Below are positions 16-63,508 of a stretch of DNA of 64,000 nucleotides, piece by piece (position 1 is the first letter of the stretch; each line of letters begins with the position of its first letter). Made by a program: the position numbers and the translations under genes. This DNA comes from Escherichia phage Pollock. Under the pieces are notes generated by a model. It did no database searches and was not told the origin of the DNA. It saw only the letters and a program-made list of their open reading frames with translations. The stretch lies in sequence record NC_027381.1. The stretch is one strand, 5' to 3'.

Positions 16-222
16 ATGAAAGATGAATTAATCATCATTTTAAATGAAATATGGTCATTACCAGAATACCAAAATATACGTGGTCCTAAGGAAGAATTAT
101 GTAGAAGAATAACATGTACCGGAGTTCACTGTACAAATTGTCCTCTTGGTTATTTCTTAAAAGACGAAGATTACGTCTCTCAAATCCATAAAATATTGGA
201 AGTCATTAATCATGAAATATGA
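16..222 (+). CDS. small Cys-rich protein, member of a 4-copy paralogue family (probable Zn-ribbon)
   Basis: 68 aa; N-terminal MKDELIIILNEI motif shared with ORFs 1367 and 1558; 4 Cys (C-x4-C-x4-C-x2-C); 3' end overlaps start of next ORF by 11 nt. Confidence 0.4.
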   Translation: MKDELIIILNEIWSLPEYQNIRGPKEELCRRITCTGVHCTNCPLGYFLKDEDYVSQIHKILEVINHEI

Positions 223-1135
223 AACTCAACTCCTGATTGAATCTATGTTCAACCGTCATCAAGAACGTGAACTCATTAGAAATGAATTAAGAAGTTCACC
301 TGAAATTATGGAGTTAGTTAATGCTGCTGTTAGTAAAGCATTGGAATGGGTTAAAGGAGATTACTTTGAAAGTAAGAATAAACGTTTAGCTTTATTAGAT
401 ACCAATATTTTAGAAGATTTTTATATTGATGTTGCTGGTTCATTGGCTCAGTTTGGTAAAGCTAAGTATACCCAAGTAGTAGGTATGGTGTCTGGGATGA
501 TAACTACTATGTCTCAGAAAGAGGCTATACGTACTGCTGGCGAGTTAATTTCATTAGCAGCTATGGTAGACCTAGTTGATGTGATTCCTGCGTCTATGAG
601 CATTACAGGCTCTATGGAATTGGTTTCTCGTATTCAACTTGAACCAAAAACATTAGAACTGATTGACCAGTATCAGTATCTTCCTCCAATGATTGTTCCA
701 CCTGAACCAGTTAAATCAAATACTGGTAGTGGATACCTGTCTATTAAATGGGATTCGTTAATTCTTAAAAAGAATCATCATGAACATGATATCTGTTTAG
801 ATAATATCAATAGATTCAATTCTGTAGCATTTTGTCTGAATGAACGAGTTATCCGTAATATTCGAGATAATCGTAAACATCTGGATAGTGCTAAAGCAGA
901 TGAGACTGCTGATGAGTTTAAAGCACGAGTAGAGTCATTCCTAAAAATGGAAAAAGAATCTATGAAAGTATTTGCAATGCTCATCAATGAAGGAAATAGA
1001 TTTTATCTAACTCATAAATATGACAAACGAGGACGTACTTACTGTCAAGGTTACCATGTCTCCTACCAAGGTAATACGTATCGTAAAGCTATTCTTGAAT
1101 TAGCTGATAAAGAAATAGTACCTATTGAGGAATAA
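212..1135 (+). CDS. T7-like RNA polymerase, N-terminal-half subunit (N4 RNAPII small-subunit-like)
   Basis: C-terminal HKYDKRGRTYCQGYHVSYQGNTYRKAILELADKE resembles T7 RNAP DWRGRVYAVSMFNPQGNDMTKGLLTLAKGK (recalled from memory); same operon as the catalytic half. Confidence 0.75.
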   Translation: MKYETQLLIESMFNRHQERELIRNELRSSPEIMELVNAAVSKALEWVKGDYFESKNKRLALLDTNILEDFYIDVAGSLAQFGKAKYTQVVGMVSGMITTMSQKEAIRTAGELISLAAMVDLVDVIPASMSITGSMELVSRIQLEPKTLELIDQYQYLPPMIVPPEPVKSNTGSGYLSIKWDSLILKKNHHEHDICLDNINRFNSVAFCLNERVIRNIRDNRKHLDSAKADETADEFKARVESFLKMEKESMKVFAMLINEGNRFYLTHKYDKRGRTYCQGYHVSYQGNTYRKAILELADKEIVPIEE

Positions 1136-1561: not shown

Positions 1562-1770
1562 ATAAACAATTTATTCTTATATTGGATTCAATTAGGGATT
1601 GGGCAAAATCAGAATTTTCTTGTAAGGGTGGACTGTTAACTATACGCGATACATATATAAATGAACATTTATGTGGGTATTTATGTACCTCATGCCCTAT
1701 TGTTCAAGTAAGAAGTAAACAACTTTATCCCGACCAAATCATTCAAACTTCCTCTCAACTAATTAAGTGA
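1558..1770 (+). CDS. small Cys-rich protein (paralogue family)
   Basis: 70 aa; MNKQFILILDSI N-terminus; Cys pattern ending C-x3-C-x2-C; stop overlaps start of RNAP large subunit. Confidence 0.4.
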   Translation: MNKQFILILDSIRDWAKSEFSCKGGLLTIRDTYINEHLCGYLCTSCPIVQVRSKQLYPDQIIQTSSQLIK

Positions 1771-3005
1771 GACTCAATATGCAACAGTTTACAGCTTTCC
1801 AATATATCAAATTAGATATTGCTAACTCTTTTGGTTTAGATAAAGAACTGTTTGATGACCGTATCAAATGGTTTGAAGAAAACAAAAATAATTTAGCTAA
1901 TTTGGTAAATGATGCAGATGAACCTGCTCAATTCTACGCAGGTATGTTGGCATACCAAGATGTACTGGAAGGTAAACCAATTGGTTATTTAGTAGGTATG
2001 GATGCTACTGCATCTGGATTGCAGTGTATGGCTGCATTAACTGGCTGTAAGACTACCGCTGAAACAGTAAATCTTATTGACCCTAATTGTCGTAAAGATG
2101 CTTATACCGATGGCTATAAAGTCATGGGAGAACTACTTAATGGCAAGATTGATAAGATTGACCGTAAGGATTTGAAGGGAGCTATTATGACTCACTTCTA
2201 TGGTTCTCAAGCAAATCCTAGAAGTGTATTTGGTGAAAATACTATAGAACTACAAAAGTTCTATGAAACTGTTCAAACCATTGCTCCCGGTGCAAATATG
2301 CTACGAGATGATTTAATCAATCTCTGGCAACCAAAAGCACTTCAACATTTATGGGAATTACCAGATGGCTTTACTGCTGTCGTTAAAGTAATGACCATGA
2401 AAGAAGAAAGCTTTGAAGTAAATGAATTAAATAGTTCCTTTACTCATCGTTATTGGGTTAATGAGGGTCAGGATTTTGGTTTATCACTTGCTGCTAATGT
2501 TGTTCACTCTGTAGATGGGATGGTAGTACGTGAGATGAATCGTCGTGCTAACTACGATGAAACCAAAATACAGCGTGTATATGAGCTTCTGACTGGTTCA
2601 AACAATACAGGTATTGTGGACTATACAGTAGATGATAAACAGCTTAAGAGAGCTATTGAGCTTGCTGAAAGACATCGTTTTGTTTCTACTGTGATGATTG
2701 AGTTCATTAACCATGAGAATGTACATATGATTCCTTTATGGATTAAGAACCAACTCATCGAAATTATTGAGAAGATGTTGGCTCATAAACCATATGCATT
2801 AATTGCAATTCATGATTGCTTTAAATGCCATCCTCTGTATATGAATAACGTGCGTCAGAACTACATTGATATCTTTGCTCAGATTGCAGATAGCACAATG
2901 CTTCAAGCAATTGCATCTCAAATCTCTGGTAAACGTATTCCAGTAACTAAACTGTCTAATGACCTTTCAACATACATTCGTAAATCCAACTACATGCTTA
3001 GTTAA
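1767..3005 (+). CDS. T7-like single-subunit RNA polymerase, catalytic C-terminal-half subunit (N4 RNAPII large-subunit-like)
   Basis: RIKWFEENKNNL (cf. T7 RIKFIEENHENI), GMDATASGLQ (motif A, cf. DGSCSGIQH), IMTHFYGSQ (motif B, cf. MTLAYGSK), IAIHDCF (motif C, cf. IHDSFGT); T7 sequences recalled from memory. Confidence 0.85.
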   Translation: MRLNMQQFTAFQYIKLDIANSFGLDKELFDDRIKWFEENKNNLANLVNDADEPAQFYAGMLAYQDVLEGKPIGYLVGMDATASGLQCMAALTGCKTTAETVNLIDPNCRKDAYTDGYKVMGELLNGKIDKIDRKDLKGAIMTHFYGSQANPRSVFGENTIELQKFYETVQTIAPGANMLRDDLINLWQPKALQHLWELPDGFTAVVKVMTMKEESFEVNELNSSFTHRYWVNEGQDFGLSLAANVVHSVDGMVVREMNRRANYDETKIQRVYELLTGSNNTGIVDYTVDDKQLKRAIELAERHRFVSTVMIEFINHENVHMIPLWIKNQLIEIIEKMLAHKPYALIAIHDCFKCHPLYMNNVRQNYIDIFAQIADSTMLQAIASQISGKRIPVTKLSNDLSTYIRKSNYMLS

Positions 3006-7178: not shown

Positions 7179-7421
7179 GGTAAATCTGCAATTATTCGTC
7201 AAATTGCAAAAGAAGCTAAATTATTGGTTATTGACCTTCGTTTAGGTCAATGTGACCCAACTGATTTATTGGGATTTCCAAATATTGAGAATGGACGGTC
7301 TGTATATCATCCACCAAAAGATATTCCAATTATTGGGGATGAAATTCCTAAAGGATATAACGGTTGGCTGTTATTCCTTGATGAAATGAATACAGCACCT
7401 AAAGCTGTTCAGGCTGCTGCT
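7179..7421 (+). CDS. MoxR-like AAA+ ATPase, exon 2 (GKSAIIRQIAKEAKLLVIDLRLGQ ... Walker B LLFLDEMN)
   Basis: no start codon or RBS of its own; in-frame stop at 7155 upstream; ends with stop directly after AVQAAA. Confidence 0.55.
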
Positions 7422-8265
7422 TAAATTAATAGGCATTTATGGGGGAAACCTCATATCTAAAGCTACTTAAAACGGGGAACTCTTAGTAGTGTATATACAC
7501 TAAAGACAATCCGTTGCTAAATAGGAATTAAGATGCAAGAAGTTTGGAAAGCTATTCCCGGATATGAGAAAGAATATGAAATTTCTACTCATGGACGGAT
7601 TAAGAGTTTAGATAGAGTCGTTCCTTGTAAACATGGCACTCGCCTTGTTAAAGGAAAATTATTAAAAACCTATATTAATCGAAAAGGGTATTTAATTGTT
7701 ACTTTATCTAAAGAAAATAAACTGAAAACATATACCGTACATCAGTTAGTTGCTCTTACATTTATTCCAAATTTCATTAAAGGCACAGAAATTAATCATA
7801 AAGACGGTAATAAATCCAATCCAGTATTAGATAATTTAGAAATTAGCAACCCTAGCCATAACCAGTTACATGCTATAGCTACAGGTCTTAAAGCAAAGGT
7901 TGGTAAGAGTAAATACCACAATGTAACTTACATTAAAAACCCACGGGCTAAGAAAAAGTGGGCTGCAAGTATAAGTTATAATGGGGAAAAATCTTTTGGA
8001 TGGAAAACATTTATGACAGAAGAAGAAGCTGCAAGATATGTAGATAAACTTCTTGATGAAATAGGTGATACTTCCCGTTTAAGAAATTTCTAATTAATTC
8101 CTTAAATGCCCAACGACTAGTCGAAAGACGTAGGCTCAAGTGAGTCGAAAAAGTAGCTCCCCAAACAAGTAAAGTTGTGGGGATTGATATAGTCTGCTCT
8201 ATATAGAAATATATAGCTGGATTAATTATCCGGGTAATGATTAACGACCATTACTGAACATAAGG
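7422..8265 (+). mobile_element. group I intron 2 carrying an HNH homing endonuclease ORF (td-like)
   Basis: 7462-7530 CTTAAAACGGGGAACTCTTAGTAG...AGACAATCCGTTGCTAAATAGG closely matches the phage T4 td intron core as recalled; ORF begins right after this element; 3' part has CAACGACTAGTCG...CTCAAGTGAGTCG. Confidence 0.65.
7533..8093 (+). CDS. HNH homing endonuclease (intron-encoded)
   Basis: 186 aa; N-terminal WKAIPGYEKEYEISTHGRIKS, HNH core NHKDGNKSNPVLDNLEISNPSHNQLH, C-terminal AP2-like DNA-binding region. Confidence 0.8.
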   Translation: MQEVWKAIPGYEKEYEISTHGRIKSLDRVVPCKHGTRLVKGKLLKTYINRKGYLIVTLSKENKLKTYTVHQLVALTFIPNFIKGTEINHKDGNKSNPVLDNLEISNPSHNQLHAIATGLKAKVGKSKYHNVTYIKNPRAKKKWAASISYNGEKSFGWKTFMTEEEAARYVDKLLDEIGDTSRLRNF

Positions 8266-16151: not shown

Positions 16152-16396
16152 TGGATATCGCATTTGTAGTTTCCAAATTGATTGTTACAGAGTACACGTT
16201 GCTTAGACAATGGTGGCCTGAACAATTACGTCAATCCAGATATGTAGATAATGGAATGACTAGAACTTACTTCTTAGATACACATCCATCCCCTGAACTT
16301 CAAGAACTCATAGAAGAGTTACATAAGTTTGGGAGAGAGTATCGACTTATAGATTTAAGAGGAGTGGAAATAGATAATGCGTCATATAATCTTTGA
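16151..16396 (+). CDS. hypothetical protein
   Basis: 81-aa ORF. Confidence 0.35.
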   Translation: MDIAFVVSKLIVTEYTLLRQWWPEQLRQSRYVDNGMTRTYFLDTHPSPELQELIEELHKFGREYRLIDLRGVEIDNASYNL

Positions 16397-18323
16397 ACAA
16401 AATCAAAGATATCCAATCGCCATTCTTATTAAACCTCAACAACTAAAGAAGAAAGAGATATTAGAAGCTTATATCAATCCTACTGGAATCAAGCCAAATC
16501 AATTTATTGCATTTGACCTTGAGTACAATGGGAAAAAAGCTCCTGTATCTATGCAGAAAGACTATCTTAAAGTCTTACTACCAGAGCTTTGTAATTTAAG
16601 AACAGAATATATTCTGTGCTGTGATAGTGCATATTTCAAAACCTTAACCAAGCAATCTAAAGCAGAACCTCATTGTGGTTATGTATTGCCTTGTGTCATT
16701 CCTGGTTTTGAACATCTAAATATTATTTTCTGTCCTAATTATGCTCAGATTTTCTATGACCCTTCTGTACAGGATAAAGTTAATCTGGCTCTCAAAGTTC
16801 TAGTAGATAAGGTAAATGGTCAATACCAAGAGATTGGTAAGAACATTATCCATACTGCTTACTATCCTTCTACAGTTGAAGAAATTGAAGCTTGGCTTGA
16901 ATCTCTACATCAATATCCAATTCTAGCTTCAGATATAGAGGCATTTAGTCTTAAATTCTATAAAGCAGGTGTAGGTACTATTGGATTTGCATGGGACCAA
17001 CACAATGGAGGAGCATTCGCTGTTGATTATACGAATGAACCAGACAAGGCTGAAAGAATTAGGCAGGCTCTTAAGAAGTTTTTTGAAACTTATGAAGGCA
17101 AACTGATTTGGCATAACTCAAGTTATGACTTAACAGTGCTTATTTACCAGCTTTGGATGAATGGTTTAGTAGACCAAAAAGGATTGCTTAAGGGTTTGCA
17201 CATCATGTGTCGTAATTTTCACGATACTAAGATTGTGACATATCTGGCTACAAACTCTTGTGCAGGTAATGAGTTAGGGCTAAAAGCTCAAGCTCATGAA
17301 TTTGCAGGAAACTATGCACAAGAAGATATTGATGATATTACTAAAATCCCATTACCAGACCTTCTGGAGTACAACTTAATTGACTGTCTAAGTACTTGGT
17401 ATGTTGCAGACAAACATGCAGATACTATGGTATTGGATGAACAATGGGAAATTTATAATACTCTGATGTTACCTTCGCTGAAGAATATTATTCAGATGCA
17501 ATTAACTGGTATGCCTATTGATATGGCAGAGGTTAAGAAGGTTAAAGCAGAAATGATTAAAGAGCGAGATGGTTATCTTAGAGCCATCAAGTCATTTGCA
17601 GTAGTAGATTTGTTAGTTAACAACCTACGTAAACAACATGTTGCTACTAGAAATGCTACGCTCAAAACCAAGCAAATTACAATGTCTGATGAGGAGACAT
17701 TAGCAATAGAGTTTAATCCAAACTCTAACCCTCAAATGCAGGAACTTTTGTATGAAATTATGGGATTACCTGTAATTGATTTAACTGATTCTAAGCAGCC
17801 TGCTACTGGTGCAGATACTCTAGAAAAGTTAATTCATCATACAGATGATGATAGACAGAAAAAGATTCTTGAATGCCTTATTAAATATTCTAAGGTAGAA
17901 AAAATTCTTTCTGCATTTATACCTGCATTCGAAGAAGCACCTTTAGCTGAAGATGGTACTCATTATTTATTCGGAAGCTATAACTTAGGTGGTACTGTAT
18001 CTGGTCGTTTGAGTTCATCAAAACCAAACATGCAACAAATTCCTTCCTCTAAGAGTCCTTACGCCAAACCTATAAAACGATGTTTTAAAGCTGGTAAAGG
18101 TTGGCTTCTTATTGGATTAGATTTTGCATCTCTTGAAGACCGTATTTCTGCTCTAACAACCAAAGACCCTAATAAATTGAAAGTGTATATGGGGGTGAAT
18201 GTTTATACGGTTACTATAGAGGGGGTTGACCATCATATTCGAGATGACGATACAATCATTTATGATGGTAAAACTTACACTGGTGAAGAGTTCTATGATG
18301 CTTTTACCTGTGGCCTTCTATGA
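16377..18323 (+). CDS. family A DNA polymerase, N-terminal polypeptide (3'-5' exonuclease + pol motif A)
   Basis: 648 aa; exo motifs ASDIEAFSL, YNLIDC; SGRLSSSKPNMQQIP; motif A LDFASLEDRI; homology ends near KVYMG (~18194) then reads ~43 codons into the inserted HNH element. Confidence 0.8.
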   Translation: MRHIIFEQNQRYPIAILIKPQQLKKKEILEAYINPTGIKPNQFIAFDLEYNGKKAPVSMQKDYLKVLLPELCNLRTEYILCCDSAYFKTLTKQSKAEPHCGYVLPCVIPGFEHLNIIFCPNYAQIFYDPSVQDKVNLALKVLVDKVNGQYQEIGKNIIHTAYYPSTVEEIEAWLESLHQYPILASDIEAFSLKFYKAGVGTIGFAWDQHNGGAFAVDYTNEPDKAERIRQALKKFFETYEGKLIWHNSSYDLTVLIYQLWMNGLVDQKGLLKGLHIMCRNFHDTKIVTYLATNSCAGNELGLKAQAHEFAGNYAQEDIDDITKIPLPDLLEYNLIDCLSTWYVADKHADTMVLDEQWEIYNTLMLPSLKNIIQMQLTGMPIDMAEVKKVKAEMIKERDGYLRAIKSFAVVDLLVNNLRKQHVATRNATLKTKQITMSDEETLAIEFNPNSNPQMQELLYEIMGLPVIDLTDSKQPATGADTLEKLIHHTDDDRQKKILECLIKYSKVEKILSAFIPAFEEAPLAEDGTHYLFGSYNLGGTVSGRLSSSKPNMQQIPSSKSPYAKPIKRCFKAGKGWLLIGLDFASLEDRISALTTKDPNKLKVYMGVNVYTVTIEGVDHHIRDDDTIIYDGKTYTGEEFYDAFTCGLL

Positions 18324-18840
18324 ACAACGGTATAAGATTTTTGATGAAGGTTTCATCTTAAATCTTGCAAACAATCAACTCCTAAAACCAATTCTCAATT
18401 CTAATGGATACCTTAAAGTTGGATTAGCTAATGGTGATGGTACTCATCATCAAGAGCTACTTCATATTCTGGTAGCTAAACACTTCATTCTAAATCCTTA
18501 TGGCTACAAACAGGTAAACCATAAAGATGGTAATAAACTGCATTGCCATAAGGACAATCTGGAATTGTGTTCTGCTACTCAGAACGTCAAACATGCATTT
18601 AAAACAGGACTACGCCCCGGTTATATGTCTGCTGATGATAAAGAGAAATATCTCTTTGAGGTACTAGCAGGCAAGCAAGTTAAGGACATTGCTTTTGAAA
18701 TAGGCAGACGTCCTGAAACTCTGCACAAGATGCTTAGAATCACTGCTGACCGACTTGGTATCCGAAATGAATGGGACGATGTTATGAGGAGAAATAGAAA
18801 AGATGTTGCTTTACGACAGCTTGCCAAAATCAACTCATGA
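18226..18840 (+). CDS. HNH homing endonuclease inserted within the DNA polymerase gene
   Basis: 204 aa; HNH core VNHKDGNKLHCHKDNLELCSATQNVKH; different frame from both polymerase parts; true start may be an internal Met (~18295). Confidence 0.7.
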   Translation: MTIIFEMTIQSFMMVKLTLVKSSMMLLPVAFYEQRYKIFDEGFILNLANNQLLKPILNSNGYLKVGLANGDGTHHQELLHILVAKHFILNPYGYKQVNHKDGNKLHCHKDNLELCSATQNVKHAFKTGLRPGYMSADDKEKYLFEVLAGKQVKDIAFEIGRRPETLHKMLRITADRLGIRNEWDDVMRRNRKDVALRQLAKINS

Positions 18841-19663
18841 CTTCACTGGCAAGAAAATTGACAACGTAGTCAAGGCTGGTAATTCGTCAGGGTATGATGG
18901 TCATAGTTTGAGGGCATTTGCTTACTTTGGCGACCAGATGCCTGATATTGTAGATACTGTGGAAAGTATCAATAGTATTCAGGAATTATATAAGGACTTT
19001 AGACAAGACTCTAAAGCTCCTACTTTTGCATTAACTTATCAAGGTACTTATCACACATTAATGGCTAACTGTGGTTTCCCAGAGGATAAAGCCAAAATGG
19101 TTGAGAAGAGGTATCACGAACTCTACTTCGTATCTGACCAATGGGTAAACGCTAAATTAACTCAAGCCAGTAAAGATGGATATATCACTGCTGCATTTGG
19201 ATTAAGAATCCGTACTCCATTACTTAAAAATGTTGTCTGGGGAATTAAACAAACTCCTTATGAAGCTAAAGCTGAAGGCAGAACTGCTGGAAATGCTTTA
19301 GGTCAATCATGGTGTTTATTAAATAACAGGGCAGCAAATGAATTTATGGAACGAGTATGGAATTCTCCATACGCATATGTAATTAAACCATGTGCTCAAA
19401 TCCATGATGCTCAATATTATCTGGTTCCAGATAACATCGACATTGTTCATTGGGTTAATGAAAATTTAGTCGAATGTATTGAGTGGCAAAACCATCCTGA
19501 TATTTATCACGATAAAGTGAAATTAGGAGGGGAATTAAGCGTCTTTTATCCATCATGGGCTAATGATATTTCATTGAAAAATGGAGCCTCTAAAGAGGAA
19601 ATCTTAAGCACATGTGAAATTGGATTAGATAAGTATCTTTACCCGGAGAAATATAAAAAATGA
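18803..19663 (+). CDS. family A DNA polymerase, C-terminal polypeptide (motifs B and C)
   Basis: 286 aa; YDGHSLRAFAYFGD (cf. Pol I DIHRATAAEVFG), motif B-like RQDSKAPTFALTYQGTY, motif C QIHDAQYY; own ATG overlapping the HNH ORF 3' end. Confidence 0.8.
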   Translation: MLLYDSLPKSTHDFTGKKIDNVVKAGNSSGYDGHSLRAFAYFGDQMPDIVDTVESINSIQELYKDFRQDSKAPTFALTYQGTYHTLMANCGFPEDKAKMVEKRYHELYFVSDQWVNAKLTQASKDGYITAAFGLRIRTPLLKNVVWGIKQTPYEAKAEGRTAGNALGQSWCLLNNRAANEFMERVWNSPYAYVIKPCAQIHDAQYYLVPDNIDIVHWVNENLVECIEWQNHPDIYHDKVKLGGELSVFYPSWANDISLKNGASKEEILSTCEIGLDKYLYPEKYKK

Positions 19664-25242: not shown

Positions 25243-25983
25243 ATGTCTCTGTTAAAAAATCTGGAAACTAAAGCTGGTGTTGAAGGTGAAAAGGATACCC
25301 TAGGTGGAGGTGGTGTACTTGACTCTGGTCTGTATGACCTGATTGTAAAAGTAGCTTATATCTCTGCTTCTAGTGGTGGTGCTTTAGCTCTAAATACTAT
25401 CTTTGATTATGATGGTAAAGAAGTACGTCAGCAGTTCTGGATGACTTCTGGCAATGATAAAGGCAATAAGAACACCTATATCGGTAAAGATAATAAAGAA
25501 CATTATCTACCGGGTTTCTTAGCTGCTAATAGTTTGGCTCTTTTGACTGTTGGTAAAGAAATTAGCCAACTGGAATTGGAAGAGAAAACTATCAAGCTGT
25601 ATGACTATGAGGCTAAAGCTGAAGTACCTACTAAGGTACAGGTATTTGTTGAATTAACTGGTCAAAAAATTACTGCTGGTATTCAGAAACAGACCGTTGA
25701 TAAGAACATTGATTCTGGTCAGGTTGACGGTAATGGTAGAAAAATTTATGTAGCATCTGGTGAAACTCGTGATATTAACGAAGTAGTTAAATTCTTCCGT
25801 CACGATGATGGTTTGACTGTACCTGAAATTGAAGCTGGTAAAACTGAGGCTCAATTTAAAAATGATTGGGATGCTAAATTTACTGGTAAAACCATCAATA
25901 AAGCTAAAGGCTCTAAGGATGGTGTAACAGCAGGTGCTCCATCAGCAACAGCAAAACCAACTAAATCCCTATTTGCTAAATAA
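25243..25983 (+). CDS. abundant DNA-metabolism protein, candidate single-stranded DNA-binding protein
   Basis: 246 aa; highly biased codon usage; position just upstream of the late block; C-terminal tail KPTKSLFAK shared with ORF 26637..27068. Confidence 0.35.
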   Translation: MSLLKNLETKAGVEGEKDTLGGGGVLDSGLYDLIVKVAYISASSGGALALNTIFDYDGKEVRQQFWMTSGNDKGNKNTYIGKDNKEHYLPGFLAANSLALLTVGKEISQLELEEKTIKLYDYEAKAEVPTKVQVFVELTGQKITAGIQKQTVDKNIDSGQVDGNGRKIYVASGETRDINEVVKFFRHDDGLTVPEIEAGKTEAQFKNDWDAKFTGKTINKAKGSKDGVTAGAPSATAKPTKSLFAK

Positions 25984-27463: not shown

Positions 27464-27483
27464 AAGCCTCTTCCATGAGGCTT
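27464..27483. terminator. bidirectional terminator between convergent plus and minus blocks
   Basis: aagcctc-ttccat-gaggctt hairpin with T-rich tracts on both strands; sits between + gene ending 27458 and - gene ending 27490. Confidence 0.6.
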
Positions 27484-27489: not shown

Positions 27490-30400
27490 TTAGTACAGAC
27501 TTACTAAAGGATGGATAGTAAATCCATTTAGTGCTGTACCCATTCCAACGTTATAACTTAAGCTACCTGTTGCTAAGTTTGCTTCCATGATATTAGGTAA
27601 TCCAGATTCAGCAGTATTACCAAACATAAGGAATAATGCTCTTAATGGGTTTTCCCTAATCGTTCTTAAGATAATTTTCTGAATACGAATCTTATAGTTT
27701 AAGAACCATGTTAAACCAATAGCATCCAAATAGAATCTGGTGCGACTAGGTAATATGTCATAGTTCACAAACTCATCCATTACTCTATTCAATGCACTAT
27801 CTTTATCCATTGGATTACGAGAACGAGTAGTTAAATGCTTATATAGAGAGTATTTAGCAACGAAGTCACCATACTGAATTGAACGATTCAATAAGAAGTA
27901 CACATTACTATCTCTAGATAAAGTGATTTCTTTAGCAACACGTTTAACACTATCTGGAATACCAGAAGTGTACTCATCCATTTTAGTAAGTAGTTTATCC
28001 TTCAAAGAGTAATCATCCTGCTGACCTAAATCTTCTGCGATAGTTGGTAACAAACCAGCTTTAATTAAATCAGCTACTGGGTTACGAGCTTGAGAATCTT
28101 TAAGTTCAGATATTTTTCTCTGATACTCTTCAGCCATTCTTGGATTATGGTTTACAGCCAGATAATGAGAATACTCGTTAATTAATTTCTCATTTCTTCT
28201 GTACTCCTCAGCAGCCAGTACAGCAGTAGACATATCTTTAGCCATAGTAATTGGGCTAATACCTACCGTAGCCAAATGTACCATGTTAGATAAGATATTC
28301 CCTGCGGATACAACTACTGAACGAACTACAATCCAGTCCTTCATTTCCTTCACAAATTCCATCAAACCACGTTCACCAAGTCTTAGATAGCGTGCAGCAT
28401 TCTTACCTAAGAATGTTTCTGCAATGTTTACAAATGCTTTCTGAAACTCTTTAGAGAAATTGGTTTGACCAGTCCATAGATTCAGTACAGAAGGTTCACG
28501 ATAACCAAATGCATTATTCAGTAAATCCTTACGTACTTTAATTTTCCCATTAGGCCAAATACGTTTGGCTGCTTCTTTCATCTCAATAGGCATCAGTTCA
28601 TAGATTTCTTTTAACTGATGGTCTGTAGAGTTTTCATCTATAGTGATGTATTGATATGCTTTTCCTTCTCTAGCATCCTTCTTATAGATTTCACCAAGTC
28701 TTTCTAAAAGCATCTCATTGTATTTGGCAGCCTGAATCTCTTCAGCAATACGACCTTCCCAAGCAGCTAATACTTTAGTGAAGTCATTATCTACATTTAA
28801 TTGAGCTTCTCTATTAGCTCTTGGCATTTGGTACGAGTATCCCATTATTGAACCAGCGCGGTTTAAAACAGGCTGCATCTGTCCATCATAGTTCTGAGGC
28901 ATTGGTTTAGAAGCATCAAATAAATCATTGATAGCAGCTTGTTTATTAGCTGATACCTTGTTCTTTTCTGATGTCTTCCATGCACCCGGGGTCATAGAAC
29001 CATTAACACTTCTGCCTGTAATTGGGTTTACTCCACCTACGGTGCTTTGCAGGGTACTCATTACACCAGCAATCCAACGAGGTTCACCACCATTGTTAGA
29101 ATGGTAGTAGTACATTGGAGTTTTATCTGTATCTGCTGGGTCACGTTTAACTTGAGCACCTCTGGTATAGCCTCTACGAGATAAGCTTGGTTCATCCTTA
29201 ATGGATGCAATAATTACTTTTTTGTTTGGGTCAGTGATAGTAGGAGTAAATCCTTTAACTGCTGCCAAAGAATAGTTATTACCAGATTTAGCTAACTCAG
29301 CGCCTTTAAGGCTTTCATAGTATTTGAGAGTAAAAGTCATACCATTATTATCTGGTTCACCTTTAGTCATCTCTCTACTGATTACATTACTTACTGTTTC
29401 TTTATCTGCTTGAGATAATTCAGTAAGAGCACTCAATGAAGCCAAGGTATCAATTAACTGAGTAGCTATTTCAACAGCATCATTTGATGGTCTTTCTCTA
29501 CCAGTACCAATCAAACGTGCAATAGCAGCAGCATTTGATAATTGGTATGCCAGTGGAGATACTCCATGCACCATCTGTTTAGCTAAACCATGAGCAGATT
29601 TAATATAGAATGCAGAGTTTTGAGCACCTGCTTTTTGTAACTGAGATTCTATTAAATCTATCTCTTTAGCTAACTCATTTGGATTAGTTAATAATTCATT
29701 TAAACGAACCAAGTCATACCCATTAGCAAACAGGTATGCCATATCTGTATTGGCAACTACTCTCTGAATAGCCTCTTTCTCATTTTGGTTTAAAGAAACA
29801 AACGTTTTTTCAATCATACCCGGAACCATCTCACGAATAATCTGACGTGCTCTATCAGCAGCCATATTTTTCTGAGTTAATAAGGTATGAATACTACTGT
29901 TGGTTTCATTAGAACCAATAAATTCATTAATGAGTTCAGCGATAGTACCTAGTTTTCCATCCTGATGAATGGTCATATAAATGTGAGTTATAGCCTCACG
30001 TACATCATGAGCATCTTGTTCATTAAATACTGCTGCTCCAACAGTAATACCAAATGCTACAGACTTAGGTACTTTCTTCTCTACTTTGCTTAACTGCTTA
30101 CGAATAGAGTTACCAAAAGCTCTCAACCTATCTTGAGTAGCTTCAGTGATTTCTTCTGTACCTCTACCAATTCTGGTAAAGAGATTATCTCTTGCCTGAC
30201 TATCTACATGACTAATGTTCTTAGCCAGTTTAGATAAACGAGAAGCAATATTTGTATCTCTTAAAGATTTAGTAGCTAAGCCAGATAACCAAGTAAGAAT
30301 CATATTAGTTAAATCACCAATACGTTCTCTAAGAGATGTAGCCTGATTCTGTCTGGTACGTTTAACACTAATTTGAGACAGCTTATTTCTTAATTGTTCA

Positions 30401-33400
30401 TTGGTTTCAGCCAATGCAATAAAGTTAGCAAGTCTGTTAGTACGACCAGTAGCATCAGTAGTAATAGCTGTATTGCCAAATACTGCATCATATCTTTGTT
30501 TAGCTAATGCCATTTCATTAGCAGAACGATTGTTAGGGTCAGTTAAGAAATCTTCTACTTTTAAGTTTTCTCTGGCTTGCGAGTACAAACTACGTGCAAC
30601 CAGAACACTTGGAGAAAAGTTCTCTAACCCATATTTCATAGATACTTGCAGCATCTTGAATACAAATGCTTCTTTCTCACTCATGTTAAAACCATGAGCA
30701 ATTAATGCATTTGGTGAGTCATCAATTTCTGGGTCAATGCTATCTACCAAAAGTTTATCTTGGTAATGCTCTAAACCAGATATTTGCTGACCAGTATTTT
30801 TAATTACTTTAATGATATTGGATTGTAAGTAATCCAGAGTATCTGTTAGATGATTTACATGTTCCTGAGATGCTTTACCTGCATCCAATTTATTAAATAA
30901 TGTTTCTGCATCTAATCTATTAATGTTGTTAGCATTTTGCTGAGCATAGCTTGTTGTATCTCTGGATTTAACAGGATTGGTAGCATCAGCCAAAGCAACG
31001 GTATGGCCTAACAAACGAGTCCAGTAAGAAGTAATGTCTGGATTAGAGCCAATAGCAAACAGACGTTTAATAGATTCAGCTAATTGCTTAAGTACCTTTG
31101 TTACAGTTCCTGTAATAGTTTTTTTAGTCATTGCATCAATCATCCTTGGGTTAACAAGACCCCATGCAATGAATTCAGCAGTAGCCTGAGCCATATCACC
31201 AGAAGCAATATGATTATTAATCAAGTCTACAACACTATCTGTTTCAGGATTCGTACTAGAATACTCATTAACAAATTTAGTCATGAGTGCTTCTATTGAA
31301 GCAATCTCTACTTTTTGAGCAGGAGTTAATGCTTCTGGATTACTGTAATAATTGTGAACAGCATTAGCAGTAGCAGCATGAATTAACTCATGCATTACAG
31401 TCTCAATAGACTGAGAACCAATATAGATATTCTGTCCCTGTGTAAGCCCTAAGAATGAGTTATTAAACTCAACCTTAGTATCAGGTGTCATTTCCTGTTG
31501 AACGGCTGAGAGAGCTTCTGGAGAGCCTACATACACATTAATATCTTCAGGAATAGAGTTAGCAATCTTATCTAATACGAAGCTAGTAATTCTATTTTGA
31601 CGAGAAGGTAAAGATTTAGCTGCTTCTTTAATAGCAGCAATCACATCACCTTTAGACAGTACTTTAATTCCATCATGTCCTGATACATTTCTTCCATTTT
31701 TAGCCAATGCTTCAATCATTTGACGAGTAGGAGGAATAGTTACTCTACCTTTAGGGAGAGATACTGATTCCATAGTAGGAAGTTCTGTATTAGCAATTAA
31801 CTGTTCTAAAGGAGTTCTGGTATCAATTGCTTCTTTATCAGTCTGCTTACCATTCTGAACATTGAATGGAATATTAGCCCCGGTCATTTGGTTAATAGAA
31901 GTAACTGCTTCTCCTCCTAATAAACCTTGTTTAATAGCAGTTTGAGTAGCAGCTTCTTTTTTAAGAAGTGTAGTAAATGCTTCTAACACTTCTGGGCTAG
32001 TAGGTGAATTGGTTTCATCTGCTCCAATCATTTCCATAATTCCACGGAAAGATTGTTCCAAACGTGTATCTGCATCTGGACCTAATTCTTCAGTTAGATT
32101 TACTCCTTCCATCGCTTGCTCAAAACGATTAGTAAAATCTTGAAGTAAATCAAATTCATTCCAACTTTGCAGAACACCTTGGTTAATAGCTTGAGAACCA
32201 GTATCTAAATGAGCTACAGCATTAATATAACCATCAAATACGTTAAGGGCATTGTTAGGGTTAATATCACGAGCAATAGCCTGCATAGCTGCTTCTACAG
32301 ATTGAACCAATAAAGGCATTACACGAGTACCTGGTTCAGTATAAGTAGGAGTATCTACACCAAAAGTAGCACGACGCATTTTACCATCCAGATTTCTACG
32401 TCCTCTGGATTCCATACGATAAATATCAAATGTGACTCTACCTTCTTCACTCAGAAGAATACCTTCATTTAATTTAGCTGCATCAGTATTACCAGCAGTA
32501 AACCAAGAGTTAAAGATAGGCATCTGAGTAATCAGTTCTCTCTTAATCTCGTTATATTGCTGCTGAGAAAGAGATTCATACTTAGATAATTTACCTGCTT
32601 CTCTAAGTTCTTTTTCTTTAGCTTCTACTACTTTATTCCAACGAGACATGAATACTTCATGCATTACAGCAGCAGCATAAACCATCATCTTGCCGCGATT
32701 GATTACAGTACCAAATTCATTAGCAATTGATTCATTTACTGCTGCACCAATACCAATTTTGATGTTTTGGGTAATTGCTTCAATCTGCTCGCTAGTAAAC
32801 TCAAATTTAGTTACATCTTTTCCTAAATTGATAGGAGCACCAATTTTTACCCAAGAACCATTACGAAATACTTGAGCAGTAGTTAATTCATTAGTTGTAT
32901 TGGTCAAATCATTAATATGAGCAATTGCAGCATCTCTATCTTCCTGATTAGTAGCTGAATCTACTGCTCTTAATGCTTCTGTGATTGCTTCGTAATAACC
33001 ATTAGCAATACCCATAGCAATCTTTCTATTGATTGCATTAGCACCACCAGAATAAACAGTAACTGTTACTGGATTTTTAAGTAATCCTCGACCTATTTGG
33101 ATTGGATGTTCTACATCCTCTCCTTCAACAATATTTACATCACCAATTAGTTTTGATGCAGCAAGAGTTACCCTTACCTGATTTTTCAAGCGTTCAATAT
33201 CTCTCATCTCTTTTTGTTGGAATTGTCGAGATTTATTTTTAAGGGCAGCTAACCTGTTAGGGATATTACTGTAAGCATCCATCATGTTGTTGATGTATTG
33301 CTGTGAGCCAGCAGCAGCAGTTTTATACAGGTCTAAGAATCCCGGTTCTTCAGCAGCATCATTGTATAGACGGTCTGATTGCCCATAGAACAAACCACCT

Positions 33401-36400
33401 TTCTCTAACTTATTCAGTAAATCTTGGTTCACGTCTTTTAAACCAAGCTGAACAATAGAGTTAAATGGTCCATTAGTTACACCATCAAGCTCCAGCATCA
33501 CATGAGTCTGGAATGAGGATTTACCTTGTTCTACTGCTAATTCATATTGAGCTTGTGCATATAAAGCATGGAGTGTTTTAGTTTTCTCCTTACCTGCTTT
33601 TACAGCTTCTAAAAGAACCTCTGCATCAGCATCACTAATTGAATCTTGGTTTTCAGCAGCTTTTAGAATATTGATAGCATCTCTAAATAAACCAGTACTG
33701 ATAGCTTTATTTAGCTTATCTCTGGCAGTCTCAGAAGAGAGTTTATCAACAGCAATATCCAATCCTTGAGCAATAGCATAATCAAGAAATGCACCATGTT
33801 GAGGATTGTTGAGTTCAATAGTAGAAGGTTCAACAGTAATTAATTCACGATGTAATTTAGCTGACTGAGGGTTTAAATCCCCTGAGTTAAGCATCATACG
33901 GAAGTTACTAATTACGTTATATGCAAAATAAATAGGTGTATTAGCCAGAGGTAATCCAGCTTCTGACATACGAGTTAAACCGTTAATCAGAGTATTAATA
34001 TCTCTTTCAATAGTACGGTTAGAACCTTGAATGGATTTCAGATGAGCACCATTAGCATTCTCTTCTGATTGAATGCCTAACATTCTACCAATCCATTCTG
34101 TACCTAATTTATCCAGCATAAGGTCATGAAGACCCATGTTGATATAATGAGGTTGTTTACTGGCTTTGTTACGTGCAGCAAGCATCTTTTCAGGAATATC
34201 CTGACCACCACCATTTTTAACTTTAGTGCTCTGACCTTTTGGTGGAGTACCAAAGTATGCTCCTGCTTTTTCTCTCTGAGGATTAGTTAATTGACCTAAG
34301 AGGTCATTGGAATCCTTCATTAAGTCTACTAAACGTTTAGCAGCTTCAGATTCTTCATTCATACGAATGAATATACGAGAGTTTTTAATGTTGGATTCAT
34401 TTACTTTAGTAGAACCAACAGCAGCTAATTCACTGTTTTTAACAACAGATTCTTGAACCAGATTAGCATTAATCATTACGTTCAATACTTCAGTTGCTAG
34501 TGCTTTAGATACAGCATCACGAACAGAGATAGGAGTATTAGGGTCAGCATTAATACCTAAGATTCCAAAAATCTCTCTGCTTAAATAATCAATAACATTT
34601 TGCCGGTCTGTACCTACATTACGTAATAAATCTGTTTGCTCTACAGTAGGTTTAGTTTTGTTATCTAAACCAAGAATATCCATTACTGTACGGTCATCAT
34701 TGAATGTAGTTTCAACTGCATTACGTACAAACCACTGCATCATACCAGCAGTCATTGCTTCAATTACTGGCTGAGGTAAGAAGTAAACATTTTCACCATT
34801 GATATTTCTTACTTCACTAAAATATTCGACAGGGTATGTTTCCCAGAAGATACGTTGACCTTCAGGAGTTAATTTACCCCAAGATTGAATTAACGATTGT
34901 TCAATAGCAGGGACTAAACCAGCAAATTGACGTAGTACTTTTACTTCTTTCTCTGTTACTTGTTCTGGTTTAATAAATCCTTTAAACAGATTTTGAATCT
35001 GAGTAATAGGATTAGAACCATTGGTAAAAATGTTATTAAGTCTTCCAGAGAAATTAGAAGTTCTCAGGAATGCAGAACGTTTACCTGTAGGTTTAAACCA
35101 TTTTTTAACTTGGTTAGTAGCCTGATAGTTCTTATCTGCTTCTGAAGTAGATTTAGCATCAGAACGTACAGTTTCTGATTGCAGACTACTCAGAATATCG
35201 AAATTAACACCTTTATCTAAACCAAGTTCTAATTGAGACTCATCCATTAAATCAGTCTCAACTTCAGTTGGTTTTTCCTGAATCTGAATTTCAGATTCAA
35301 CTACATCTGGTTTCTCAAATAGTTCTCCTTGAACTGGAGTACTAGTAGGAGCTTCTGTAACAGCTTCTGGCTGTGTTTCTACAGTCTCAGAAGGTGTTTG
35401 TACCTGTTCTTCAGAAACCTGTGCAGAAGCCTCTATAGGAGCTTCTGATTCTTGAGTTGAGACTAATTCCTCTGTAGCAACTGGAGCAGATTGTGCTGGC
35501 ACAGATACAGGTTTACCATCTACTAATTGACTAGTAATGGTATGTGCTTGACGAACAGCATTAGCATCATTACGAATTTCTTTGATTAATCCTTTAGAAC
35601 GTACCGGATGATACGTCATAGGATTTCCATCTAAAGATAAATATGGTTGTCCTGTAGTTGGATTAATTACTTCTACAGGTTGATTACCAGTAAAGTTTTG
35701 AGCAGCCTGTTCAAATGCATTAGCTTTAGTTTCCATGTGCTCTGCAAAACGGTTTAAATGGTCTAATAAACCTTGAGCACGAGCAGTATCCCCTAAAGAT
35801 AATGCACGGAAGATACCTTGCTGATACTGTTGAATACCAATAAATCCATCAGAACCTTTACGTACATCTTCTCCTACTTGGCTCATTGCTTTACCAGTAG
35901 CAGAGATAATTTTTAATTTATCTACATCCTGCTGGTTCAAACCAATGGTTTCTGCTGAATTAACTAAACGGTCAGCAACTTCTGGAGTAATAGAAGATGC
36001 ATCTAAATTCATTTGAGCCAGAACAGATTTAATGTTCTTTTGTACTTCAGGAGATTTATAAGTTTCTGGAGTAATTTCAGAAGGTAAAGACTCCATAATC
36101 TTATTCATTTCTTCTGGAGTCAGTCTGAAGCTTTCAGCAGTAGTTTTAACTGCTTGTACATCAGGATGGTTCAGCACAGCATTGATATTATCAATAGCTG
36201 TTTGATACTGAGCTTTCTCTTCTTCTGGTGCAACTTCCATCTGTGCTTGAATTTGAGGTAAAGCTTCCTCATAAGCAGAGATAACATTATTACCTACAAC
36301 AGCTAAATCTCTACGAGAAGCTTCATCCAAATTACGTTCTTTAATTGCACGGGAAATTCTCAAAATAGAATCTGGAGAACTAATTTCCTCTTCAGGAATA

Positions 36401-38103
36401 GCTTTAAATACTTCTTTAGCAGCAGGTTCAGTAACAGCATCAACAGCTTTAACTACAGTTGGTTCTGCTACTGCTTCAGCATCTGTTTGTTGTACTGTTT
36501 GTTTAACTGATTCATTAGCAGCAGATACAGTATTCCTAAAAGATTGTGCTCTGGATTCTGCTTTACGGGCTTCTCTTGCTTCAAATGCTTCACGACCTTG
36601 TTGAGCACCTTCTTGAATTGCTCTAGGTGTTTCACTGATAGCCGAGCCAAAAGCACCCATACCCGCACCAGCAATAGCAGACTCAACAGCGTTTGAACCA
36701 ATGTCTTCAGCAAGGGACTGAGATTCATCAGCAGAAGTCCGTATGCCGAGGTTAGAAGCAAATTGACCAGTAATCCCTTGGGAGGTTTCTTCAATAGTTT
36801 CTTTGAAAGCATTGTTAAGAACTCGTGAGGAAGCACTAAAGAATCCCGTACCTTCAAGTAAGGAAGGAGTGAATATACGAGATTCAAATGGAGCAGCAAC
36901 CTTACCAGTCAGAGCACCAAGAGTACCTGCTACCAAAGCAGTGACATTACCTGTTTGAGTACGTACTTGTCTTCTGGCTTGCTCTGGAGACATACCATCA
37001 GCAATTAAATCACGATACATAGGTGATTTTTCTGCTAATTGCTTATCAGTCATTCCATCAATCTGGTCTAATGTTTGTTGGGCATTAGAACCTGCTTCTT
37101 GGAAACCTACATAACCAACCAATGCTCTTTCAGCAGCATCCTGAAGACGTTTTCTACCATACTGAGTTGAAGCTAGCTTGGTAGCAAAATCTGCACCATA
37201 TTCTTCAGCTAATTGTTTAAATGCTCCACGAGAAGCAATCTTACCTACTAAACCACCAGTTAATATATCTGGAGCAGATTCAGCAATAAGTGTAGTTAAT
37301 GCTCCCGGAGCACCACCATATTGTTCAGCAGTATTAACAAACTGACGTAATTGTTCTTTAGCCCCTGCAACTAAAGGATTATCACCTTTAGCTATATCAG
37401 CAGCTTCACGAGCTTCAGCACCTTGTTTAAATCTCTCTTTTTCTGCTTCAATTACAGATTGTTCATATTGAACACGCGGAGAATATTGAGAACGTTGTTC
37501 TTCAACATACTGTTTTAATGGTACATCAATACCCACTTGTTCTAATAAAGTAGGTTGTCCTAATTGTTCTTCTTGACCAGTAACATTAGCAATTAAATCT
37601 TGAGTATTTTGTAATGCTAAGTTACCCAAACCAGTAACAAATCTAGCTGTATTACCTGCCCATATCTGTGCAGCATTACCTACATCAGATAATTCTATAG
37701 GAGCATTTTCAAATATATCTGTATTGGCTTGAGCAATATTTAAAGACAGTTTGTCTCTAGCTGCCTGAGGACCATATTTCTGCTGTAATGCAGATAAAGG
37801 CATATCTCTTAAATCAGCCAAATATTGCTCAGAAGGATTAGTTTGAGTAGCAGTAGTAGTAGTTCTTTGTCCAGATAGCATCTGATTCATCTGTTCTCTT
37901 GTATATTTAGGACCAGATTCTGCTAACTGGATTGCTTGCTGTGCTCTTTGATACTGTGGAGAACCTACAGCAAAGTCTATTTCTACCCCGGGTACTGGAG
38001 TACCTAACTCTAATTTCTTCTGTTGAGTAGCTATATTTAATTGTTGTGTTTTTTGTAAGGCAGCATTAGCTAATTCTTGCTGTTTCTCAAATCCGGTGGC
38101 CAT
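27490..38103 (-). CDS. giant virion-encapsidated RNA polymerase (N4 vRNAP-like)
   Basis: single uninterrupted 3,537-aa ORF; size and position at the head of the late structural block fit N4-type architecture; catalytic motifs not verified by eye. Confidence 0.8.
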   Translation of the reverse strand: MATGFEKQQELANAALQKTQQLNIATQQKKLELGTPVPGVEIDFAVGSPQYQRAQQAIQLAESGPKYTREQMNQMLSGQRTTTTATQTNPSEQYLADLRDMPLSALQQKYGPQAARDKLSLNIAQANTDIFENAPIELSDVGNAAQIWAGNTARFVTGLGNLALQNTQDLIANVTGQEEQLGQPTLLEQVGIDVPLKQYVEEQRSQYSPRVQYEQSVIEAEKERFKQGAEAREAADIAKGDNPLVAGAKEQLRQFVNTAEQYGGAPGALTTLIAESAPDILTGGLVGKIASRGAFKQLAEEYGADFATKLASTQYGRKRLQDAAERALVGYVGFQEAGSNAQQTLDQIDGMTDKQLAEKSPMYRDLIADGMSPEQARRQVRTQTGNVTALVAGTLGALTGKVAAPFESRIFTPSLLEGTGFFSASSRVLNNAFKETIEETSQGITGQFASNLGIRTSADESQSLAEDIGSNAVESAIAGAGMGAFGSAISETPRAIQEGAQQGREAFEAREARKAESRAQSFRNTVSAANESVKQTVQQTDAEAVAEPTVVKAVDAVTEPAAKEVFKAIPEEEISSPDSILRISRAIKERNLDEASRRDLAVVGNNVISAYEEALPQIQAQMEVAPEEEKAQYQTAIDNINAVLNHPDVQAVKTTAESFRLTPEEMNKIMESLPSEITPETYKSPEVQKNIKSVLAQMNLDASSITPEVADRLVNSAETIGLNQQDVDKLKIISATGKAMSQVGEDVRKGSDGFIGIQQYQQGIFRALSLGDTARAQGLLDHLNRFAEHMETKANAFEQAAQNFTGNQPVEVINPTTGQPYLSLDGNPMTYHPVRSKGLIKEIRNDANAVRQAHTITSQLVDGKPVSVPAQSAPVATEELVSTQESEAPIEASAQVSEEQVQTPSETVETQPEAVTEAPTSTPVQGELFEKPDVVESEIQIQEKPTEVETDLMDESQLELGLDKGVNFDILSSLQSETVRSDAKSTSEADKNYQATNQVKKWFKPTGKRSAFLRTSNFSGRLNNIFTNGSNPITQIQNLFKGFIKPEQVTEKEVKVLRQFAGLVPAIEQSLIQSWGKLTPEGQRIFWETYPVEYFSEVRNINGENVYFLPQPVIEAMTAGMMQWFVRNAVETTFNDDRTVMDILGLDNKTKPTVEQTDLLRNVGTDRQNVIDYLSREIFGILGINADPNTPISVRDAVSKALATEVLNVMINANLVQESVVKNSELAAVGSTKVNESNIKNSRIFIRMNEESEAAKRLVDLMKDSNDLLGQLTNPQREKAGAYFGTPPKGQSTKVKNGGGQDIPEKMLAARNKASKQPHYINMGLHDLMLDKLGTEWIGRMLGIQSEENANGAHLKSIQGSNRTIERDINTLINGLTRMSEAGLPLANTPIYFAYNVISNFRMMLNSGDLNPQSAKLHRELITVEPSTIELNNPQHGAFLDYAIAQGLDIAVDKLSSETARDKLNKAISTGLFRDAINILKAAENQDSISDADAEVLLEAVKAGKEKTKTLHALYAQAQYELAVEQGKSSFQTHVMLELDGVTNGPFNSIVQLGLKDVNQDLLNKLEKGGLFYGQSDRLYNDAAEEPGFLDLYKTAAAGSQQYINNMMDAYSNIPNRLAALKNKSRQFQQKEMRDIERLKNQVRVTLAASKLIGDVNIVEGEDVEHPIQIGRGLLKNPVTVTVYSGGANAINRKIAMGIANGYYEAITEALRAVDSATNQEDRDAAIAHINDLTNTTNELTTAQVFRNGSWVKIGAPINLGKDVTKFEFTSEQIEAITQNIKIGIGAAVNESIANEFGTVINRGKMMVYAAAVMHEVFMSRWNKVVEAKEKELREAGKLSKYESLSQQQYNEIKRELITQMPIFNSWFTAGNTDAAKLNEGILLSEEGRVTFDIYRMESRGRRNLDGKMRRATFGVDTPTYTEPGTRVMPLLVQSVEAAMQAIARDINPNNALNVFDGYINAVAHLDTGSQAINQGVLQSWNEFDLLQDFTNRFEQAMEGVNLTEELGPDADTRLEQSFRGIMEMIGADETNSPTSPEVLEAFTTLLKKEAATQTAIKQGLLGGEAVTSINQMTGANIPFNVQNGKQTDKEAIDTRTPLEQLIANTELPTMESVSLPKGRVTIPPTRQMIEALAKNGRNVSGHDGIKVLSKGDVIAAIKEAAKSLPSRQNRITSFVLDKIANSIPEDINVYVGSPEALSAVQQEMTPDTKVEFNNSFLGLTQGQNIYIGSQSIETVMHELIHAATANAVHNYYSNPEALTPAQKVEIASIEALMTKFVNEYSSTNPETDSVVDLINNHIASGDMAQATAEFIAWGLVNPRMIDAMTKKTITGTVTKVLKQLAESIKRLFAIGSNPDITSYWTRLLGHTVALADATNPVKSRDTTSYAQQNANNINRLDAETLFNKLDAGKASQEHVNHLTDTLDYLQSNIIKVIKNTGQQISGLEHYQDKLLVDSIDPEIDDSPNALIAHGFNMSEKEAFVFKMLQVSMKYGLENFSPSVLVARSLYSQARENLKVEDFLTDPNNRSANEMALAKQRYDAVFGNTAITTDATGRTNRLANFIALAETNEQLRNKLSQISVKRTRQNQATSLRERIGDLTNMILTWLSGLATKSLRDTNIASRLSKLAKNISHVDSQARDNLFTRIGRGTEEITEATQDRLRAFGNSIRKQLSKVEKKVPKSVAFGITVGAAVFNEQDAHDVREAITHIYMTIHQDGKLGTIAELINEFIGSNETNSSIHTLLTQKNMAADRARQIIREMVPGMIEKTFVSLNQNEKEAIQRVVANTDMAYLFANGYDLVRLNELLTNPNELAKEIDLIESQLQKAGAQNSAFYIKSAHGLAKQMVHGVSPLAYQLSNAAAIARLIGTGRERPSNDAVEIATQLIDTLASLSALTELSQADKETVSNVISREMTKGEPDNNGMTFTLKYYESLKGAELAKSGNNYSLAAVKGFTPTITDPNKKVIIASIKDEPSLSRRGYTRGAQVKRDPADTDKTPMYYYHSNNGGEPRWIAGVMSTLQSTVGGVNPITGRSVNGSMTPGAWKTSEKNKVSANKQAAINDLFDASKPMPQNYDGQMQPVLNRAGSIMGYSYQMPRANREAQLNVDNDFTKVLAAWEGRIAEEIQAAKYNEMLLERLGEIYKKDAREGKAYQYITIDENSTDHQLKEIYELMPIEMKEAAKRIWPNGKIKVRKDLLNNAFGYREPSVLNLWTGQTNFSKEFQKAFVNIAETFLGKNAARYLRLGERGLMEFVKEMKDWIVVRSVVVSAGNILSNMVHLATVGISPITMAKDMSTAVLAAEEYRRNEKLINEYSHYLAVNHNPRMAEEYQRKISELKDSQARNPVADLIKAGLLPTIAEDLGQQDDYSLKDKLLTKMDEYTSGIPDSVKRVAKEITLSRDSNVYFLLNRSIQYGDFVAKYSLYKHLTTRSRNPMDKDSALNRVMDEFVNYDILPSRTRFYLDAIGLTWFLNYKIRIQKIILRTIRENPLRALFLMFGNTAESGLPNIMEANLATGSLSYNVGMGTALNGFTIHPLVSLY

Positions 38104-38139: not shown

Positions 38140-38170
38140 GTACTAAAAGAAATCCCTCACTAGGAGGGAT
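38140..38170 (-). terminator. terminator-like hairpin (minus strand)
   Basis: atccctc-actag-gagggat with T-run on minus strand, between upstream structural gene and the giant ORF. Confidence 0.45.
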
Positions 38171-38177
38171 TTTGTCA

Positions 38178-63433: not shown

Positions 63434-63508
63434 ATACTTCACACATTGATGAGTCTTCGACTCTAGTGGAGCAATGGTGCTCTACTTAATCATGATTAGG
63501 AGTATGTT

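Follow-up and report, generated by a model that had tools for sequence, protein, structure and literature searches.

The product of the open reading frame (ORF) at 27490..38103 is almost certainly the full-length homologue of N4 gp50, i.e., the virion RNA polymerase (vRNAP) of the N4-like podophage Escherichia phage Pollock. The first-pass annotation had read this giant ORF as an N4-like vRNAP, and the reading was supported by PHROG 2206, the solved N4 gp50 and the Pollock record, which agree with each other. The window, i.e., the whole stretch of DNA that was analysed, was 64,000 bp in length.

The vRNAP ORF was found in the ORF listing of the window on the minus strand. It starts with ATG and encodes 3,537 aa followed by a stop codon, and no internal stop was found in the translation. 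A ribosome-binding site, GAGGA, was located at 38114-38110, 6 bases 5' of the start codon. The single 3,537-aa ORF had been noted before, and its strand, which had not been given, is now added. The stop-free run at this locus was 3,550 codons, whereas 100 shuffles of the window gave at most 197 codons (mean 136). Given the composition of the gene itself (36.9% G+C), a stretch of 3,537 codons would escape a stop with a probability of approximately 1e-116. A chance origin of the ORF is excluded. The GC skew changed sign at about 28 kb of the window, in agreement with the coding-strand switch there.

Domains and catalytic residues of the vRNAP

The N4-type vRNAP was defined as one chain of approximately 3,000-3,800 aa that is collinear with the N-terminal, polymerase and C-terminal regions of N4 gp50. 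The definition also included the T7-like motif residues, an HExxH motif in the C1 subdomain, and a genomic context of gp51, gp52, RNAPII and SSB genes. The promoters of such an enzyme were defined as DNA hairpins with a 5-7 bp stem and a 3-nt loop at the left genome end. All of the defining features of the protein and its genomic context that can be tested in sequence were found in the window, including collinearity with N4 gp50 over the three regions.

In the profile search, PHROG 2206 "virion RNA polymerase" was aligned from aa 59 to 3536 with profile positions 15-3404 of 3406 (3,214 bits). Three of three Pfam families, i.e., N4_RNAP_helical, vRNAP_dom_2 and vRNAP_dom, scored above their curated cut-offs, and no Pfam family beyond these vRNAP-specific ones was matched. 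When the whole protein was searched by HMMER, the solved full-length N4 gp50 structures (11GP, 9PNQ) were matched over aa 638-3535 (E=1.8e-183), and a second stretch, aa 204-586, was aligned to N4 161-532. The central 1,151 aa matched the mini-vRNAP structures 2PO4, 3C2P and 3Q0A at E~3e-46, which is the outcome anticipated when a comparison of the central ~1,100 aa with N4 mini-vRNAP was first suggested. T7 RNA polymerase (RNAP) gave no direct sequence match to the window vRNAP in PDB or Pfam.

The domains were placed by alignment to N4, with boundaries taken from the preprint on the full-length structure (PMC12633501), and are listed in Table 1 together with the other features. The membrane-spanning helices predicted in N4 lie at 224-278 (PMC12633501). 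The equivalent region of the window protein is aa 267-311, where the hydropathy profile has an overlapping, moderate hydrophobic peak (aa 268-286). Identity to N4 was 21-28% in all domains, and identity to the vRNAP of Salmonella phage FSL SP-058 was 81-92%, the polymerase domain being the highest.

Table 1. Positions of the vRNAP domains, motif residues, neighbouring genes and hairpins in the window
Feature	Position	Strand	Remark
N-terminal domain, aa 1-878	35470..38103	minus	HMMER alignment to N4 gp50 161-532
Linker, aa 879-975	35179..35469	minus	low-complexity, E/V/S/Q/T/A/P-rich; N4 equivalent 907-1006 (PMC12633501)
T7-like single-subunit RNAP domain, aa 976-2107	31783..35178	minus	equivalent of N4 mini-vRNAP 998-2103
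vRNAP_dom_2, aa 1310-1422; N4_RNAP_helical, aa 1644-1806; vRNAP_dom, aa 1940-2073		minus	Pfam
T/DxxGR Arg, R1402	33898..33900	minus	aligned to N4 R424; local ISNFR, only Arg kept
Motif A Asp, D1540	33484..33486	minus	LELDGVTNGP; aligned to N4 D559
Motif B, K1676 to Y1684	33052..33078	minus	KNPVTVTVY; aligned to N4 K670 to Y678
Motif C Asp, D1957	32233..32235	minus	NVFDG; aligned to N4 D951
C1 subdomain, aa 2136-2374	30982..31698	minus	contains HExxH
HELIH (HExxH), aa 2238-2242	31378-31392	minus	aligned with N4 HELVH at 2228
C2 subdomain, aa 2375-3537	27493..30981	minus	collinear with N4 2376-3500
gp51-position gene, 471 aa	38178..39593	minus	N-terminal ~120 aa similar to N4 gp51, E=9e-8
N4 gp52 homologue, 154 aa	39603..40067	minus	E=1e-14
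RNAPII genes	212..1135 and 1767..3005	plus	collinear with RNA polymerase subunit and RNA polymerase of SP-058
Terminator-like hairpin	27464..27483	scored on both strands	6 nt 3' of vRNAP stop, where the convergent blocks meet
Terminator-like hairpin, 9-bp stem	38150..38172	minus	between gp51-like gene and vRNAP start
Candidate vRNAP promoter hairpin	63451..63469	plus	GAGTC-TTC-GACTC then TAGTGG; identical to hairpin at nt 28 of SP-058

Eight vRNAPs from several Schitoviridae lineages were aligned by MAFFT, i.e., those of the window, N4, FSL SP-058, Pylas, Erwinia S6, Vibrio JA-1, Pseudomonas Pa2 and Dinoroseobacter R7L. The catalytic residues of N4 mini-vRNAP, which we take to be R424 (T/DxxGR), D559 (motif A), K670 and Y678 (motif B) and D951 (motif C), sit in the expected local sequences TRVGR, EADGVTNGP, KNPLTITIY and KIFDG. 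All five were aligned to identical residues in the window protein (R1402, D1540, K1676, Y1684 and D1957), so the residues of the T7-like palm motifs, for which a check had been proposed, are kept in the alignment to N4. Four residues were invariant in 8 of 8 vRNAPs, i.e., the T/DxxGR Arg, the Asp residues of motifs A and C and the Lys of motif B; the motif B Tyr is Tyr in the window protein. The only motif departure was the replacement of the Thr and Gly of TxxGR, i.e., ISNFR, which was found in the three Humphriesvirinae vRNAPs aligned. A previous study has confirmed the motifs T/DxxGR, A, B and C of N4 vRNAP with mutational validation, without giving residue numbers (PMC4496689). The HExxH motif, described in the C1 subdomain of N4 (PMC12633501), was found in all eight vRNAPs; seven share the alignment column of N4, and in JA-1 it is displaced.

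It was considered whether the protein is a true gp50 homologue that retains the ejection and structural roles but is no longer active as a polymerase, or is active with another template specificity. The polymerase domain is only ~24% identical to that of N4, TxxGR is degenerate throughout the Humphriesvirinae, and two further differences would suit a changed specificity, i.e., Gly in place of D901 and a -8 position of the candidate promoters that, unlike in N4, is not G. However, both metal-binding Asp residues are conserved, as are the Lys and Tyr of motif B and the Arg of T/DxxGR, and the candidate hairpin promoters sit exactly at the expected early-promoter sites. Within the subfamily the polymerase domain is the most conserved part (92% vs 81-87% in the other parts), a pattern that speaks for purifying selection on this domain. 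This alternative is therefore very improbable as a whole. Judged from the conserved residues, loss of polymerase activity is unlikely, and a shifted promoter specificity is plausible as a variant of the vRNAP assignment, not a rival to it. That the product is some other giant virion protein, i.e., a tape-measure protein, tail fibre or internal ejection scaffold, with ~3,500 aa by coincidence, is less credible still: size by itself does not separate a vRNAP from such proteins, the N- and C-terminal thirds carry no enzymatic Pfam annotation and the N-terminal domain probably serves in membrane insertion and ejection (PMC12633501), but this explanation is refuted by the end-to-end collinearity with N4 gp50 and by the central domain, which matches a solved polymerase with all motif residues intact.

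For the vRNAP assigned here, homology, intact motifs and synteny come from the window, and the rest of the mechanism is taken from N4 (PMC4496689, PMC12633501). By this analogy, a few vRNAP copies would be packaged in the capsid and leave it via the tail at infection, ejected with the gp51-like and the gp52-like protein. The enzyme would then transcribe the early genes, including those of the RNAPII subunits, without host RNA polymerase. Its promoters would be template-strand DNA hairpins at the left genome end, extruded by supercoiling and gyrase and stabilised by SSB. The C-terminal domain is predicted to autoinhibit the enzyme. The vRNAP gene itself would be a late gene, the last one in a leftward unit beginning at the portal gene.

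Genomic context and interrupted genes

The gene order around the vRNAP gene was syntenic with N4, i.e., SSB, the convergent junction, vRNAP, the gp51-like gene, the gp52 homologue, the major head protein and the portal. At its end, the plus-strand block carries a Sak4-like gene, the SSB gene (25243..25983, PHROG 743) and a RusA-like gene. On the minus strand, a gp53-like gene, the major head protein gene and the portal gene were placed 5' of the gp52 homologue. The adjacent gp51- and gp52-type genes, a two-subunit RNAPII and an N4-type SSB are thus all present in the same genome. N4 gp51 and gp52 are ejection proteins reported to be ejected with vRNAP, gp52 forming a periplasmic tunnel (PMC12633501).

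The late unit from the portal gene to the vRNAP gene extends from 48509 down to 27490, from high to low coordinates. The first-pass annotation had put the ORF at the head of the late block. This position has to be reversed: the unit is transcribed from right to left, on the minus strand, so the vRNAP gene is its last and 3'-most gene. The same annotation had used the ORF to anchor hairpin motifs and RNAPII genes. The RNAPII genes are indeed present, on the plus strand, and are expected to be products of vRNAP early transcription; of hairpins, only one candidate was found, at 63451.

The hairpin ahead of the vRNAP start reads AAATCCCTC-CTAGT-GAGGGATTT from 38172 to 38150 and is followed by CTTTT. 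An identical sequence was found in SP-058 and Pylas, and an analogous hairpin in N4. This hairpin may limit or attenuate read-through into the vRNAP gene. Such a limit would fit the low copy number of vRNAP per virion, which is 4 +/- 1 in N4 (PMC12633501).

Interrupted genes were found elsewhere in the window. Group I introns are reportedly mentioned in papers on other N4-like phages. A MoxR-like AAA ATPase gene (6705-8952, plus strand) was resolved by tblastn with the SP-058 protein into three exons, i.e., 6705-6788, 7179-7421 and 8266-8952; the gene is uninterrupted in SP-058. Intron 1 (6789-7178) splits the Walker A motif between GSPGI and GKS, and the Rfam group I intron model RF00028 was matched at 6778-7130 with 101 bits (E=4e-25). 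In intron 2 (7422-8265), an HNH endonuclease ORF (7533..8093) was found, and both ends showed sub-threshold group I matches. Both introns are preceded by an exonic U able to pair with G in a P1-type helix and have a terminal G. These sequence signatures identify the two interruptions of the AAA ATPase gene as group I introns. The Pollock announcement mentions only the insertion in the DNA polymerase gene, not the AAA ATPase introns (PMC4319500).

A 39-nt repeat was found on the plus strand at 6974-7012 and 8111-8149. Each copy can form two small hairpins with compensatory changes between the copies, i.e., GGC-GTAA-GCC vs GTC-GAAA-GAC, and CACTC-AAGT-GAGTG vs GGCTC-AAGT-GAGTC. The copies lie in the 3' core of both introns, so the introns are mutually related. 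The repeat was also considered as a vRNAP hairpin promoter, and this was rejected with both copies being located within group I introns.

A 695-nt insert, almost wholly an HNH endonuclease ORF (18226..18840), breaks the DNA polymerase gene (16377-19663, plus strand) between 18188 and 18884. In the Rfam search, no group I signal was detected in the insert at E<=1. A split intein was rejected, as the first residue of the insert is Met and neither Cys nor Ser, and as in-frame stops are present. Of the two flanking ORFs, one extends 44 aa into the insert and the other begins 27 aa short of the insert's end. This arrangement suggests that the DNA polymerase may be made as two polypeptides and not from a spliced mRNA, contrary to the intron stated in the announcement (PMC4319500).

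Candidate hairpin promoters

Promoters were scanned for with a pattern of a perfect 5-bp stem with a C:G closing pair and a TYC loop on the coding strand, followed by TNNTGG. In the left 9 kb of N4, three matches were found at nt 90, 559 and 4548, i.e., 5' of gp1, gp2 and gp15. The whole genome of FSL SP-058 (72,394 bp) gave five matches, all on the plus strand and in the left 5.8 kb. In the 64,000-bp window, outside which most of the Pollock early region lies, one match was found, at 63451, where shuffled windows averaged 0.035. Because the window opens with the RNAPII genes, it lacks about 4.3 kb of the early region, the expected home of most promoters. The segment 63424-63969 was aligned to nt 1-555 of SP-058, i.e., the left genome end, with 87.7% identity. 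From this alignment, 63424-64000, which includes the hairpin at 63451-63469, is probably the 610-bp right terminal repeat of Pollock.

On the template strand, +1C, -9C, -10G, -11A and -12A are kept in the candidates. They have the GAA loop of N4 P1, but the conserved -8G is absent: T, A or C occupies this position in the candidates, vs G in three of three N4 promoters. In the enzyme, the specificity-loop motif is NLDGKMRR in the window protein vs NLDDRMR in N4, with R904 kept as Arg and D901 replaced by Gly. For the element recognising -11, R119 corresponded to Arg and W129 to Tyr, in HMMER and only in a low-confidence stretch of the alignment. The MAFFT alignment had given a complete loss of the N4 promoter-contact residues; this reading was dropped, as local pairwise and HMMER alignments show that the specificity-loop motif is kept.

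It is possible, although we hold it tentatively, that the vRNAPs of the Humphriesvirinae, including that of the window, recognise a hairpin class distinct from that of N4. The proposed class would have a 5-bp stem closed by a C:G pair, a loop that reads GAA on the template strand, no fixed base at -8, in contrast to the invariant G of N4, and +1C after a 4-nt spacer. It would accompany the change of D901 to Gly, ISNFR at TxxGR and possibly the change of W129 to Tyr. If this is true, the window vRNAP would be an orthogonal hairpin-specific single-subunit RNAP.

Another hairpin was observed at 59901-59923 on the plus strand, approximately 400 nt 5' of the tRNA cluster (60308-60637: Pro, Met, Arg and Leu). 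It reads GCACC-TTC-GGTGC and is followed by TTTTCTTGG. The loop and the closing pair are promoter-like and the spacer is longer; it could equally be a terminator.

Relatives of the Pollock vRNAP

By exact-sequence look-up, the window vRNAP was identical over 3,537 aa to YP_009152160.1 / AIX12418.1, "virion RNA polymerase [Escherichia phage Pollock]". The Pollock genome is KM236242, and its lineage is Pollockvirus, Humphriesvirinae, Schitoviridae. The 2015 announcement put the G+C content at 36%, listed four tRNAs, a terminal repeat of 610 bp, an HNH gene located in the DNA polymerase gene and a TerB/TciA homologue, and explicitly named the homologues of N4 vRNAP, RNAPII and SSB (PMC4319500). 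Of these features, the 36% G+C, the four tRNAs and the HNH gene within the DNA polymerase gene were seen directly in the window. In megablast against a phage collection without KM236242, the nearest DNA matches to the vRNAP gene were Salmonella Ithacaviruses with about 85% identity. A new species, to which this best DNA match could point, was ruled out by the protein identity to YP_009152160.1.

Of the other Humphriesvirinae, Salmonella phage FSL SP-058 (Ithacavirus) has a vRNAP with 87.6% aa identity to that of the window, and Klebsiella phage Pylas (Pylasvirus) one with 82.4%, both with identical motifs. About 56 aa near residue 83-85, present in SP-058 and Pylas, are absent from the window protein. 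Pylas has a 214-aa insert in the linker, at window residue ~890, that is found in neither the window protein nor SP-058, indicating that the linker tolerates large insertions. The vRNAP of Shigella phage B2 (Ithacavirus) was detected by mass spectrometry in CsCl-purified virions (PMC11654681), and the B2 gene is ~84% identical in DNA to the window gene. This indirectly supports packaging of the window vRNAP.

N4 gp50 (3,500 aa) shares with the window protein its length class, the domain order, i.e., NTD-linker-RNAP-C1(HExxH)-C2, and the catalytic residues, and its gene has the same genomic position beside the gp51 and gp52 genes. The two differ in sequence, with only 21-28% identity per domain, TRVGR changed to ISNFR and D901 of the specificity loop changed to Gly. 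The right-hand fold of the T7 RNA polymerase family has been established for N4 mini-vRNAP, together with its motifs T/DxxGR, A, B and C (PMC4496689). The kinship of the window vRNAP with T7 RNAP is visible only via N4 vRNAP. Compared with T7 RNAP, it is ~4 times larger and, by analogy with N4, is expected to be packaged in the virion and to use hairpin promoters, not duplex ones.

The vRNAP gene already has a GenBank annotation and a mention in the 2015 announcement, so its assignment brings no new biology. The assignment marks the window as belonging to the Schitoviridae, genus Pollockvirus, and it frames the rest of the window, from a transcription cascade of three polymerases to early hairpin promoters and ejection proteins. 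The practical value is modest: domains and motifs are mapped residue by residue onto the full-length N4 enzyme, whose structure was solved recently, and candidate promoters are shortlisted for a polymerase that is only ~24% identical to that of N4.
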